Shown: in pieces, positions 47,598 to 51,535 of the stretch
Numbering within the stretch: the stretch's first letter is position 1
How the letters are laid out: each line of letters opens with the position of its first letter
DNA from: Patescibacteria group bacterium
GTDB taxonomy: Bacteria > Patescibacteriota > Patescibacteriia > JAACEG01
Reading direction: 5' to 3'
Assembly: GCA_034660655.1 (NCBI GenBank)
Contig: JAYEJU010000056.1
Span: 1 to 55,461 of the forward strand
Length of the DNA: 55,461 nucleotides
Made by a program: the position numbers and the translations under genes
The notes under the pieces: generated by a model
Seen by the model: the letters and a program-made list of their open reading frames with translations, nothing else
What the model was told of the DNA's origin: nothing
Database searches by the model: none

Positions 47598-50500
47598 TTA
47601 TTTTGAGCCATTAACTATTTTTTCAACCCTTACATAAATTCGTTTGGAAAATTTTTCCACTAAGCTGTAAATTACGGGAATTACCACTAACGTCAGTAAA
47701 GTGGAAATCAGTAATCCGCCGATTACCGCGATTGCCATCGGCCGCATCATTTCCGAACCTTCTTGTCTTGCCAAAGCCATAGGCAACATTCCCAATATAG
47801 TAGTAGTAGAAGTAATTAAAATCGGGCGCAAGCGAGTTATTCCGCCCTCAACTAAGGCATCAAATTTATCCACGCCTTTTTTTCTTAATTGGTTGATATA
47901 ATCAATTAAAACAATAGCGTTATTTACCACAATCCCGGCAAGTATTATCACGCCCATAAAAGACGGCAAAGACAAAGTTTGTCCTGTAATAAACAGAGCC
48001 AACCCCACACCGATAAAAGCTAATGGCAATTCAAACATAACAATAAATGGATGGATTAGCGATTCAAACTGCGAAGCCATAACCATATAGACTAACAAAA
48101 TTCCCAGCGCCAACGCCCAGCTTAAAGCGCTAAAAGCATCTTGCATCTGTTTATAAGATCCGCCGTATTCAATAAAATATCCAAACGGCAATTCATAATC
48201 GCTTAATTTGCTTTTTATGTCTTTTACCGCGCTTCCAACATCCCTATCAATAATATTAGCCGTTACCGCTACCACCCTTAATTGATCTTCGCGATTAATT
48301 TTCACAGCGCCTTCGTCTTTGGAAATTTTAGCTACTTGCTTTAGAGGTATCTGGCTCCCGAACGGAGTAGTTATCGTCAAATTTTCTATCTGTTTAATAT
48401 CATCTCTATAAATTTTATCAAAACGAACTCTTATATCTGTTTCTTCTCCTCCTTGGCGCAATTGAGTGGCGACTGATCCCTGTATAGAATTTTTCACAAC
48501 AGAACCAATTTGTCCGACTGTCAGACCTAAATAAGATGCTCTTTCCCGATCAATGGTAATAACTAATTCCGGCTTGCCTTTACTCAGAGTGGTATCAATA
48601 TCGCGTACGCCTTCCAAGTCATCAATTTTTAGCGCGATTTCATAAGCCGTATTTTTTAAAACATCTAAATCCTTTCCAAATATTTTAATTTCAATTGGAG
48701 AGCTTGAACCGCTTATCAAAATTTTACTCATATCAGTAAAATTTATTTCTAAACCTCTTATTCTGGGAACTTTTTTTCTTATTATTTCCTGAACATCTTC
48801 AGCTGAATATTTCCTATCTTTTTTATCTTTTAATCTAATAAAAATTTGAGCTTCGTTAATGCCTGCTGACCCAAGTCCCAAACCGATACTTTCGCTTCTA
48901 CTGGCTTCATCTAAACCGACAAAACTGGTAATAGCCGATATTTCATCAATGTTGACTAAATTATTTTCTATTTGGTTAATGGCTTTATTAGTTTCCTCCA
49001 GGGATGTGCCAACTGGCATTTTCACTCCAAGCAGCATCATGCTTTGGTCGCTGATAGGCATAAATTCAGTTCCAATAAACGGAACTAAGGCAATTACACC
49101 AATTAGCAAACTAATAGTAACAGCCATAGTTTTGAAACGATTATTCAATGACCAAATTAAAATTTTTTTATAAATATTTTGAATTTTTTTAAAATGACTC
49201 TCTCCAGAAGCTTTTTGATAATCTTTCGCTTGCTTTCTTTTTTTAAAAATTTTAGATGCGATCATCGGCACTAAAGTCAAGGCTACAAACAAAGAAGAGG
49301 CTAAAGAAAAAATGATTGTTAAAGACAACCCTCGCGATATTTGCCCTATAATGCCAGAGCCAAAAGACATGGGCAAAAAAACAGCAATAGTAGTCAGTGT
49401 AGCCGCTGTAATAGCCATTCCAACTTCTTTAGCTCCAATAATAGCGGCTTTTTGCCGCTTGCCGATTTTTTCCAAGTGGCGATAAATATTTTCAATTACC
49501 ACCACGGCATTGTCCACCAGCATTCCGATTCCTAAAGCCAATCCACCCAAAGTCATAAGGTTTAAAGTATAGCCAACGGCGTAAATAGGAATAAAAGTGG
49601 CGATCAAAGATAAAGGGATAGCTAAACCAATAGCTAATGTAGGGCGCCAATTTCGCAGAAACAAATAAATTATCAGCATTGCCAACAATCCGCCGATTAT
49701 TCCGCTTTGCGTTACTGAATCAGTTGAAGTTTTAATTAAATGGCTTTGATCCATTACTAACTTAAAATCAATATCTTGCGGCAAATTTTTTCTTAATTTT
49801 GGCAATTCTTGCTTAACTGCTTTGGCAATCTGCGAAGTATTAGCGCCTGATTGCTTATTAATCAACATTAATAAACTGTCTTTTTTGTTAGTACGGCAAT
49901 AACTTCTTAATTCTTTATGTGTATCAATAATTTCTGCGACATCTTTTAAATAAATCGGTGTATCATTTTTGACAACAATAACTGTATTTTTCATTTCCTC
50001 TATATCCTTATATTTCCCTATCGTGCGCAAAGGGAATTCTTGCAAACCCTGTTCTATAAACCCGCCGGACAGATTAATATTTTCTCCGCGCAGAATTTGG
50101 ACAACTTGAGCTTGAGTTAAATTATAGAGATCTAATCGCGGCTTATCTAATTTTATTAAAATTTCCCGATCTTGCCCGCCGCGCAATTCAACAGAAGCTA
50201 CTCCATCCAATCTTTCAATTTTGTCCTTAATATTGTCTTCCAATATTTTTTTTAATTCTAAAATTTCCAAATTATCGGACATAACGCCATATCCAAGAAT
50301 CGGCATTGCTCCGACATCCATTTTTATTACCATGGGATGGCGAGCATCTTGTGGCAAATAATCTTTTATCAAACCGATTTTATCTCTAATATCTTGAGCG
50401 GCAAAATCAACATTAGTTCCGCTATTAAATTCAACCATTACCGCTGATATTCCTTCCTGTGAAAAAGATTTAATTGACTTGACATCTTTGACTGTTGCTA

Positions 50501-50711
50501 CAGTATCTTCAATTGGTTTAGTAATAACATCTTCAATATCTTCTGAAGTCGCGCCACTGTAAGAAGTAACAACAGATACTACTGGAAATTCAATGTCTGG
50601 AAGCATATCCAATCCCAAACGGCTTAAAGAAATAAAACCAAAAACAACAATGATTAAAACCATCATTGTTATAGTAACAGGCTTGTCAACTGAAAATTTT
50701 GGTAGATTCAT
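47598..50711 (-). CDS. RND-superfamily efflux transporter (AcrB/HAE-like), 1037 aa
   Basis: 12-TM, two-large-loop architecture. Typical blocks: KFSVDKPVTITMMVLIIVVFG, GIGMLVDNAVVVIENI and VNNAIVLIDYINQLRKKG. Confidence 0.9.
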   Translation of the reverse strand: MNLPKFSVDKPVTITMMVLIIVVFGFISLSRLGLDMLPDIEFPVVSVVTSYSGATSEDIEDVITKPIEDTVATVKDVKSIKSFSQEGISAVMVEFNSGTNVDFAAQDIRDKIGLIKDYLPQDARHPMVIKMDVGAMPILGYGVMSDNLEILELKKILEDNIKDKIERLDGVASVELRGGQDREILIKLDKPRLDLYNLTQAQVVQILRGENINLSGGFIEQGLQEFPLRTIGKYKDIEEMKNTVIVVKNDTPIYLKDVAEIIDTHKELRSYCRTNKKDSLLMLINKQSGANTSQIAKAVKQELPKLRKNLPQDIDFKLVMDQSHLIKTSTDSVTQSGIIGGLLAMLIIYLFLRNWRPTLAIGLAIPLSLIATFIPIYAVGYTLNLMTLGGLALGIGMLVDNAVVVIENIYRHLEKIGKRQKAAIIGAKEVGMAITAATLTTIAVFLPMSFGSGIIGQISRGLSLTIIFSLASSLFVALTLVPMIASKIFKKRKQAKDYQKASGESHFKKIQNIYKKILIWSLNNRFKTMAVTISLLIGVIALVPFIGTEFMPISDQSMMLLGVKMPVGTSLEETNKAINQIENNLVNIDEISAITSFVGLDEASRSESIGLGLGSAGINEAQIFIRLKDKKDRKYSAEDVQEIIRKKVPRIRGLEINFTDMSKILISGSSSPIEIKIFGKDLDVLKNTAYEIALKIDDLEGVRDIDTTLSKGKPELVITIDRERASYLGLTVGQIGSVVKNSIQGSVATQLRQGGEETDIRVRFDKIYRDDIKQIENLTITTPFGSQIPLKQVAKISKDEGAVKINREDQLRVVAVTANIIDRDVGSAVKDIKSKLSDYELPFGYFIEYGGSYKQMQDAFSALSWALALGILLVYMVMASQFESLIHPFIVMFELPLAFIGVGLALFITGQTLSLPSFMGVIILAGIVVNNAIVLIDYINQLRKKGVDKFDALVEGGITRLRPILITSTTTILGMLPMALARQEGSEMMRPMAIAVIGGLLISTLLTLVVIPVIYSLVEKFSKRIYVRVEKIVNGSK

Positions 50712-51535
50712 AAATTCATTAATTTTTTAATTTGAGGCAAAATTTTAAGAGTAGCTTTTTCGCCAGCTCTAATAGTTTTTTTAACTTCTTTATTATCAAA
50801 GAATTTACTCCAGCCTACTAATCCTATTTCTCCAACTTTCGGCTCTATAAGAATATCAGCTGTTTTTAAAGAATTTTGCGCCAAATGATATCTTAATATA
50901 TTTAACGCTCTTATCGGCACTTTCGTTAAATTAATATTTTTATCTAAATCATTTTTTAATCCATTATTAAAAGAAGTATTATCAAGATTAACAGCTATCA
51001 CTATATCAGCTCCCATTGCGCGCGCCACATCATCTGGTAAAGGATTTGATAATCCGCCGTCAGCTAACAATTTGTTTTTATATTTCAATGGCTGGAAAAC
51101 AACAGGAACCGACAAACTTGCCCTTATTGCTTTAATAATATTGCCTTGTTTAATATCAATTTCTTTGCCAGTAGTTAAGTCGGTTGCTACTATTACAAGA
51201 GGAATTTTCAGATTATTAAAATTCAGATCGCTCGCGATCCATGTTTTAATTAAATTTTCTAATCTCTTTCCTTTAACTAATCCTCCATTAAAAGTCGGAT
51301 CAACTATTGACAGTCCTGTTCTCCATGTGGCTTCTAAAGCTATTGCTTCTAATTTATTTATATTTTGATTTGCGGCATAAAAAGCGCCGACCAAAGCGCC
51401 GATACTTGATCCAGCAATATAATCAATAGGGATATTATTATCTTTTAAAGCTTTAATAACGCCGATATGTGTTAGCCCTTTGACTCCGCCACTTCCCAAA
51501 GCCAAGCCGATTTTCGGTCTTTTAAATTTTGTCAT
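50708..51535 (-). CDS. Patatin-like phospholipase
   Basis: Oxyanion hole GSGGVKG, nucleophile elbow GSSIGA and catalytic Asp in ADGGLSNPLP. The TGA stop overlaps the RND ATG (ATGA at 50708-50711). Confidence 0.85.
   Translation of the reverse strand: MTKFKRPKIGLALGSGGVKGLTHIGVIKALKDNNIPIDYIAGSSIGALVGAFYAANQNINKLEAIALEATWRTGLSIVDPTFNGGLVKGKRLENLIKTWIASDLNFNNLKIPLVIVATDLTTGKEIDIKQGNIIKAIRASLSVPVVFQPLKYKNKLLADGGLSNPLPDDVARAMGADIVIAVNLDNTSFNNGLKNDLDKNINLTKVPIRALNILRYHLAQNSLKTADILIEPKVGEIGLVGWSKFFDNKEVKKTIRAGEKATLKILPQIKKLMNL

Follow-up and report, generated by a model that had tools for sequence, protein, structure and literature searches.

In the AcrR–AcrAB and MtrR–MtrCDE systems, a repressor with an N-terminal helix-turn-helix and a palindromic operator at the promoter is combined with an adaptor and a 12-helix permease of the resistance–nodulation–division (RND) superfamily, in the order regulator–adaptor–pump. 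Other RND pumps have been linked to lipids. FarR and FarE of Staphylococcus aureus, which as a monoderm incorporates fatty acids from its environment, are a TetR-type regulator and an RND-superfamily fatty-acid efflux pump (PMC10019231; PMC12671165). FemT of S. aureus and SwrC of Bacillus subtilis are AcrB-like pumps of monoderms tied to lipid homeostasis; without FemT, S. aureus becomes more sensitive to fatty acids supplied from outside, and dgkB, encoding a diacylglycerol kinase, follows swrC (bioRxiv 10.64898/2026.08.10.744025). Here we analyse a 55-kb stretch of DNA (55,461 nt, GC content ~30%; hereafter the window) from a Patescibacteria metagenome-assembled genome, in which a gene for a patatin-like phospholipase (50708–51535) runs into that for an AcrB/MdtB-like RND permease (47598–50711). 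The patatin, the pump and the N-terminal part of the adaptor each have a 100% identical counterpart among the proteins of one contig of such a genome. An earlier, sequence-only reading of this DNA had raised, correctly, the possibility of an organism of the candidate phyla radiation (CPR). The two genes belong to a cluster encoded entirely on the minus strand, and our analysis covers this window together with gene contexts from related metagenome-assembled genomes. We give an even chance to the reading that the window holds a trimmed, rearranged copy of a TetR-controlled lipid-handling cluster of a Parcubacteria clade.

At the junction, AATTTATGAATCTA (...AATTT-ATGA-ATCTA, 50708–50711), the TGA stop codon of the patatin gene overlaps the ATG start codon of the 1037-aa pump, as can be read directly from the sequence and as had been described before. 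Among 35 long open reading frames (ORFs) of the window, 28 end in TAA and only two in TGA. Stop-codon usage therefore does not account for the overlap, and the rarity of TGA fits selection for it. The same ATGA overlap between patatin and pump genes occurs in three lineages, namely the window and the related loci L001 and L092; in a further relative, L081, the patatin gene directly precedes the pump gene with a 9-nt gap. Two patatin paralogues, ~30% identical to each other, occupy this pre-pump slot: pat1, the window type, in the window and L001, and pat2 in L081 (4121–4933) and L092 (9625–10437). In pat2, CSSAS replaces the GxSxG motif, while the oxyanion motif and the DGG are kept. In our literature searches, no account of translational coupling between a patatin and an RND pump came up.

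The 275-aa patatin of the window matches PF01734 with 107.3 bits (cut-off 27.7). The three catalytic motifs reported previously, the G14-S-G-G-V-K-G20 oxyanion hole, the G42-S-S44-I-G46 nucleophile elbow and the D159-G-G aspartate, are all present, and their columns (G14, G16 and G20 included) are invariant across 34 homologues. dN/dS values of 0.09–0.18 indicate purifying selection. The closest solved relative is PlpD (E = 4.8e-42) and the best NCBIfam model is RssA; since its 154 bits (only residues 5–186 aligned) fall short of the curated cut-off of 272, the protein lies outside the RssA/YchK equivalog NF007623. PlpD and RssA (YchK) share the fold and the Ser–Asp dyad motifs with the window patatin, but PlpD carries a signal peptide, a POTRA domain and a beta-barrel, none of which is found here, and the genomic partners of window-type patatins (FakA or an RND pump) differ from those of PlpD and RssA. 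We detected neither a signal peptide, with just five residues preceding the first strand of the fold, nor a transmembrane segment, so that the lipase is predicted to be a soluble cytoplasmic enzyme. By homology, it would act as an acyl hydrolase on glycerolipids. A defence phospholipase of the CapV type, as found in cyclic-oligonucleotide-based anti-phage signalling systems (CBASS), was rejected: NF041079 scored 24.8 bits against a cut-off of 200, the best PADLOC match reached 28.6 bits, and no defence partner was present among the neighbours scanned with PADLOC. An origin by recombination between two paralogues was likewise discarded, the patatin being 89% identical to pat273 of L081 over its full length.

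The pump gene is intact. Its product matches ACR_tran (PF00873) with 928 bits (residues 5–1018, model positions 3–1020 of 1021) and aligns end to end with MdtB, CmeB and AcrB; it spans the whole 12-helix architecture, both large external loops included. Among solved structures MdtB comes closest (461 bits), followed by ZneA (385), CmeB (373) and AcrB (320). All curated NCBIfam scores lie below their cut-offs, the best being RND_permease_2 (770 vs 1250), with CusA/CzcA at 575 vs 701 and TIGR00915 (HAE1) at 518 vs 940. The sequence-only reading had pointed to MmpL and HpnN as RND relatives that move lipids; the profiles place the pump outside that group. TIGR00833 (MMPL) scored 31.6 against a cut-off of 875 and HpnN 31.8 against 752, and the MMPL Pfam model covered residues 334–487 alone (47 bits). 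Given the high ACR_tran and RND_permease_2 scores beside ~32 bits for HpnN and MMPL, the pump is therefore of the AcrB type and not an MmpL/HpnN lipid exporter. The earlier reading had named, as grounds against its idea, a pump clustering firmly with drug or metal exporters together with an independently secreted lipase; the pump is AcrB/MdtB-like, and the lipase lacks a signal peptide.

The canonical HAE1 proton relay, consisting of D407 and D408 in transmembrane helix (TM) 4, K940 in TM10 and R971 in TM11, is altered in this pump. TM4 reads VDN, TM10 VVNN and TM11 RLRP; D407 and R971 are kept, and Asn takes the place of D408 and K940. The resulting D-N / N / R pattern, in contrast to the D-D / K / R of AcrAB and MtrCDE, occurs in 118 of 120 pump homologues, non-CPR proteins among them (TM4 VDN or VDS). 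It therefore marks a distinct subfamily and not a dead gene, and we rejected it as a sign of an inactive pump. The pattern implies a proton-coupling network unlike that of classical HAE1 pumps. Strong purifying selection acts on the gene (dN/dS 0.07–0.10). Close homologues are labelled Parcubacteria, and a 64%-identical one is labelled SwrC by its source. Like SwrC and FemT, the window pump is an AcrB-type permease of full size, and its cell probably has no outer membrane, a likeness by description and not by direct sequence comparison. The study cited above for SwrC and FemT reports no patatin partner for either; in the clade of the window, the pump has a dedicated adaptor (~370–630 aa) and is accompanied by a regulator of the TetR or MarR type. 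FarR/FarE resembles the locus as a TetR-regulated RND-superfamily pump tied to fatty-acid stress. FarE is MmpL-like, however, and the window pump is AcrB/MdtB-like with an adaptor; moreover, farE lacks a coupled lipase, and farR and farE are divergently transcribed.

We surveyed the conservation of the patatin–pump linkage from both sides. From the patatin side, 80 genome loci with 10-kb flanks were inspected, and a pump gene was found near the patatin gene in just one, the closest locus L001 (79% patatin identity). A metagenome scan with the patatin sequence yielded just two loci, neither of them relevant. From the pump side, ten contexts were compared, with a patatin gene within 10 kb on the same strand in seven (window, L001, L081, L092, L095, L097 and L098), a count taken over loci that are phylogenetically related. 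The patatin gene stands directly before the pump gene in four of the ten, in three of these with the ATGA overlap. The window reads TetR-VIT-peptide-pat1-RND, followed by a separately promoted adaptor. L001, where the contig breaks off after 197 aa of the pump (87% identical over that part), reads TetR-adaptor-pat1-RND. Three relatives have pumps of 82% identity: L081 (TetR-VIT-peptide-phasin-ABC1-GT2-pat2-RND-adaptor-pat1-p131-DAGK), L092 (TetR-rSAM-pat1-FakA-DegV-PlsY-phasin-ABC1-GT2-pat2-RND) and L098 (TetR-pat1-peptide-phasin-ABC1-adaptor-RND). At 77%, L095 shows TetR-pat1-adaptor-RND. Two loci have pumps of 73% identity, L096 with TetR-adaptor-RND only and L099 with phasin-ABC1-GT2-x-MarR-adaptor-RND, the latter cut by the contig start at phasin-ABC1. 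In L097 (70%) the order is TetR-...-pat1-phasin-ABC1-TauE-TetR-adaptor-x-RND-oleate hydratase, and L100 (64%) has MarR-adaptor-RND only. A further candidate junction, in L083/84, was not counted: the cut ORF overlapping its patatin gene has an FtsX-like N-terminus. The direct junction is thus confined to a narrow Parcubacteria clade. An adjacency unique to one genome, which the sequence-only reading had named as grounds for dropping its idea, is not what we found, since the link recurs and the ATGA overlap is present in three lineages; the survey that it proposed bears out the link from the pump side and fails to extend it to the distant patatin loci.

The neighbours of these genes in the relatives are rich in lipid functions. 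Window-type patatin genes overlap fakA, with an ATGA in L093/94 and over 20 nt in L091/92, and are followed by genes for DegV/FakB and PlsY. A phasin and an ABC1/UbiB-like kinase are encoded beside the patatin in most relatives. The pump is flanked by a gene of the DAG-kinase family (DAGK_cat), downstream of the pump cluster in L081, a parallel to swrC–dgkB, and by an MCRA/oleate hydratase gene in L097. At L093, a TetR-MMPL pair resembling FarR/FarE replaces the AcrB-type pump and heads a patatin-FakA-FakB-PlsY cluster. The trio of phasin, ABC1/UbiB kinase and patatin genes was also seen in the non-CPR loci L036, L044 and L074 (Hyphomicrobiales, Desulfatiglandales and Atribacterota genomes), which suggests a broadly conserved lipid-handling module. 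We found no literature on a patatin within a TetR-controlled Fak-PlsY-phasin-UbiB cluster or on a Fak pathway in Patescibacteria. All parts belong to known families, and their arrangement is apparently undescribed, our searches having found none like it.

These surveys bear directly on a more conventional explanation, in which an ordinary TetR-adaptor-RND xenobiotic efflux operon has come to lie beside a housekeeping lipase, as small genomes are often rearranged and densely packed, and the overlap reflects tight packing with no functional link. Regulator-adaptor-pump operons do stand alone in L096 and L100, gene order differs in nearly every relative, the wider patatin family has no pump linkage, and the pump's family carries a multidrug-exporter annotation. 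In addition, dS to L081 is 0.32 for the patatin and 1.05 for the pump gene, suggesting separate histories. Set against this, the linkage has persisted through numerous rearrangements, with two patatin paralogues of just ~30% identity taking part; the ATGA overlap is found in three lineages; TGA stops are rare among window ORFs; and further neighbours of the pump are lipid enzymes. We regard coincidental packing as a serious minority possibility, somewhat unlikely on this evidence.

The lipid-handling reading assumes a common regulator, and the upstream part of the cluster supplies a candidate. The tetR gene (52634–53218) encodes a 194-aa TetR-family repressor (TetR_N 53 bits) that is 93% identical to the TetR of L081. 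A promoter-like site upstream of it, TTGACA-N17-TATAGT (53270–53298), matches the consensus at 11/12 positions and is followed by a TetR-type palindrome, ATACTTACCGAGTGGTAAG (53245–53263). The same palindrome, ATACTTACCGATTGGTAAG (47454–47472), precedes the adaptor gene, again behind an 11/12 promoter-like site (TTGACA-N16-TATAGT, 47481–47508). No other minus-strand sites in the region match at 11/12, and the palindrome that follows both, ACTTACCGA-NN-GGTAAGT, a putative operator, occurs exactly twice in the 55 kb, with zero copies expected by chance. The adaptor leader is a 51-nt direct repeat (D1) of the tetR leader, promoter included. A separately promoted, TetR-controlled adaptor, as claimed by the sequence-only reading, is therefore predicted here as well. 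Between the pump gene and this second promoter, the terminator scan and the sequence indicate a hairpin with a 17-bp stem (47520–47556), a likely terminator. Every related tetR cluster examined has the same palindrome at its head, and in the relatives it is found only there (L097, with two tetR genes, has two); the copy before the displaced adaptor gene appears to be specific to this genome. Both TetR_C_24 and the YsiA/FadR-like TetR_C_4 match the repressor above their Pfam cut-offs, and the latter domain gives a weak hint of an acyl ligand.

Between tetR and the patatin gene lie three further elements. A 190-aa polytopic membrane protein (52057–52629) with 4–5 hydrophobic segments shows a weak VIT1 match (29.6 bits); a gene of this type adjoins tetR also in L081, L083 and L085. 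It is followed by a nested inverted repeat (I1 + I2) of ~275 nt (51793–52067), which would fold into a long hairpin of -95 kcal/mol. The repeat is present as a single copy in the window; it matched no Rfam family and has no homologue in the related loci, the corresponding spacer in L081 being 25 nt. It could be an insertion resembling a miniature inverted-repeat transposable element, or a transcript-processing or attenuator element. Next comes the gene for a 45-aa single-pass membrane peptide (51639–51776), with GGAGGT as Shine-Dalgarno sequence 6 nt upstream of the start. The peptide and its strong ribosome-binding site had been recognised before, and its conservation at 52–84% identity in five related loci (L081, L083, L085, L093 and L098; pattern MPDF[LI]TN[IM]DWS...YLYWAWS..WPF) shows the gene to be real. 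The L081 copy (1162–1296) carries an in-frame stop (MPNFLTTIS*SSPAT...). The earlier reading had overlooked tetR and the VIT-like gene upstream on the same strand, the 275-nt hairpin and the split in the adaptor gene.

The adaptor gene (45691–47427, 579 codons) is interrupted by an in-frame TAA at 46462–46464. The N-terminal part (46462–47427) comprises a membrane anchor (transmembrane segment at residues 7–35), one lipoyl half-domain and the outgoing helix, and covers positions 2–82 of TIGR01730. In the same frame, the C-terminal part (45691–46461) continues with the returning helix, the other lipoyl half, the beta-barrel and the membrane-proximal domain (positions 82–321, 157 bits). The five closest intact homologues (583–622 aa, up to 57% identity) are single proteins with Gln at the position of the stop; an intact adaptor, or membrane fusion protein, was thus not found in the window. 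Homology passes straight through the TAA, which therefore reflects a recent change or a consensus error of the metagenome assembly, most simply a single CAA-to-TAA change in the former case. Reassignment of the stop codon was ruled out, as TAA ends 28 of the 35 long ORFs and no other gene of the window is split. Since the C-terminal part lacks an anchor or signal, we judged it unlikely that the adaptor works as two polypeptides.

The adaptor also appears to have a history of its own. It shares 39% identity with the L081 adaptor, compared with 82% for the pumps of the same pair, and its best matches apparently partner with more distant pumps; together these points argue for replacement of the adaptor by recombination along with the promoter–operator copy. 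The sequence-only reading had called the pump-then-adaptor order unusual. It is indeed non-canonical, but because relatives retain the canonical order (TetR-adaptor-pump in L095 and L096, as in AcrR–AcrAB and MtrR–MtrCDE, and the MarR-headed equivalent in L100), it is best explained as a derived local rearrangement of the regulator-adaptor-pump unit. Further differences from AcrAB and MtrCDE are the absence of an outer-membrane factor gene in the window, the placement of the adaptor behind the pump under a duplicated promoter–operator, and the translational coupling of a lipase to the pump. Elsewhere in the window (23670–27120), another adaptor-like protein of great length (637 aa, HlyD_D23) is encoded, its gene overlapping an ABC ATPase gene and followed by one for the undecaprenyl-pyrophosphate phosphatase BacA/UppP.

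The split adaptor raises the question of whether the module is being lost in this genome, with the adaptor gene a pseudogene and the patatin–pump pair no longer a unit, a view that would be compatible with any of the other readings. The stop falls on a conserved Gln and leaves the C-terminal part unanchored; phasin, ABC1 and GT2 genes, which L081 and L083 carry between peptide and patatin, are missing here; and only this genome has the hairpin insertion. Pump and patatin, on the other hand, are intact and under strong purifying selection, the clean homology through the stop points to a recent change or an assembly consensus error, and the adaptor is the only split gene of the window. We therefore consider decay of the module improbable.

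In a structure model of the closest intact adaptor homologue (mean pLDDT 82), two helices of ~96 residues with a tip domain form a hairpin that measures at least ~14 nm; the matches AcrA, MacA, MexA and EmrA are all much shorter. Such a predicted length invites the idea that pump and adaptor serve as a conduit by which lipids of the host are extracted or imported, to be processed by the lipase. UbiB-like and phasin genes nearby in relatives would suit this idea. So would the physiology of the group, as Patescibacteria lack lipid synthesis and their mechanisms of lipid uptake and breakdown are described as unidentified in a recent review (PMC11665869). Against an import route stand the predicted cytoplasmic location of the lipase, the short adaptors of some relatives (366–373 aa) and the truncation of the adaptor in this genome. 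Moreover, to our knowledge all characterised RND pumps export and none is known to import. For this last reason the harvesting of lipids through the pump, one of the roles proposed by the sequence-only reading, is unsupported, and we hold import to be very improbable. The broader notion of a lipase–pump lipid device gains from the lipid-gene neighbourhood in the relatives.

We return to the reading of the window as a trimmed, rearranged copy of a lipid-handling cluster. A number of points weigh against it. At the 79 of 80 surveyed loci where patatin homologues are at most 58% identical, many of them in Patescibacteria, no pump gene is nearby; the more distant pump orthologues of L096 and L100 form stand-alone regulator-adaptor-pump operons; and members of the pump's family are annotated as multidrug exporters. 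Genes of the fak, pls, fab, phasin and ABC1 kinds are absent from the window itself, and the arrangement of FakA, DegV/FakB and PlsY genes beside the lipase, present in L091–L094, is missing from its 55 kb. The adaptor gene has a premature TAA, and its C-terminal part encodes neither anchor nor signal, so that the pump, as sequenced, may be left without a functional adaptor. TetR control of the patatin–pump pair is not certain and is assumed from the relatives, because the -95 kcal/mol hairpin separates tetR and the VIT-like gene from the pair and only two operators are present, with no third. Finally, the functional assignments argue from gene neighbourhood in metagenome-assembled genomes, by guilt by association.

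With these reservations, we propose the following mechanism. The TetR repressor would bind the palindrome at the two near-consensus promoters, those of tetR and of the adaptor gene. The operon would yield the cytoplasmic patatin-like phospholipase and an AcrB/SwrC-like, proton-driven RND exporter, the latter by termination–reinitiation at the ATGA; through this coupled translation the pump would be made whenever the lipase is made, in matched supply. The lipase would deacylate glycerolipids acquired from the surroundings or from a host, and the freed fatty acids, in the relatives, would be passed to FakA/FakB and PlsY and built into new phospholipid of the cell. The pump with its long-hairpin adaptor would expel surplus amphiphiles such as free fatty acids and lysolipids, which are membrane-toxic, or otherwise keep the balance of membrane lipids. 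In this genome, what the pump can do would depend on the adaptor stop.

The rest of the window consists of housekeeping genes, with some unusual features. SecD (19820–21538) contains an inserted parvulin-type peptidyl-prolyl isomerase (Rotamase) domain at residues 174–261, between the P1 subdomains, and is followed by SecF (21635–22690). An integrase-core fragment (rve_3, 130 aa, 29124–29623) immediately precedes the L10–L7/L12 ribosomal protein genes and their L10 leader, and a Translin-family protein is encoded between rplL and rpoD (30904–31524). A protein with a Bro-N domain, usually phage-associated, is encoded near gltX (17156–17512). Finally, the ORF listed for a 550-aa polytopic membrane protein without Pfam match (42604–44256) shares 164 nt with the 3' end of an M18 aminopeptidase gene upstream of it (44093–45517); the true start of the membrane protein probably lies further downstream.

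For the biology of Patescibacteria, the locus touches on the question of lipid supply. These bacteria make neither their own fatty acids nor complete phospholipids, yet have ordinary ester-lipid membranes rich in lysolipids. In Firmicutes, the fatty-acid kinase route (FakA/FakB) makes acyl-phosphate for PlsY. CPR bacteria possess PlsY and PlsC and are rich in lysolipids, but they lack PlsX, and the source of their acyl-phosphate has been unknown (bioRxiv 465690). The patatin-FakA/FakB-PlsY clusters of the relatives address this gap. A tentative extension, which we think rather unlikely as a whole, would make the patatin–pump pair the surviving core of a Patescibacteria lipid salvage machinery, one TetR-controlled pathway converting lipids of the host into membrane of the cell, in which phasin and UbiB-like proteins extract or buffer acquired lipid, patatins free fatty acids, FakAB makes acyl-phosphate for PlsY, and transport of lysolipid or fatty acid across the envelope falls to the dedicated pump with its extra-long adaptor; FakAB supplying acyl-phosphate to PlsY would then explain the missing PlsX. 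Moreover, the locus exemplifies translational coupling between an RND pump and an enzyme that possibly generates the pump's substrate. Together with its relatives, it points to a regulated set of patatin, FakA/FakB, PlsY, phasin, UbiB-like kinase, AcrB-like pump and adaptor that could supply and balance the fatty acids of these bacteria.

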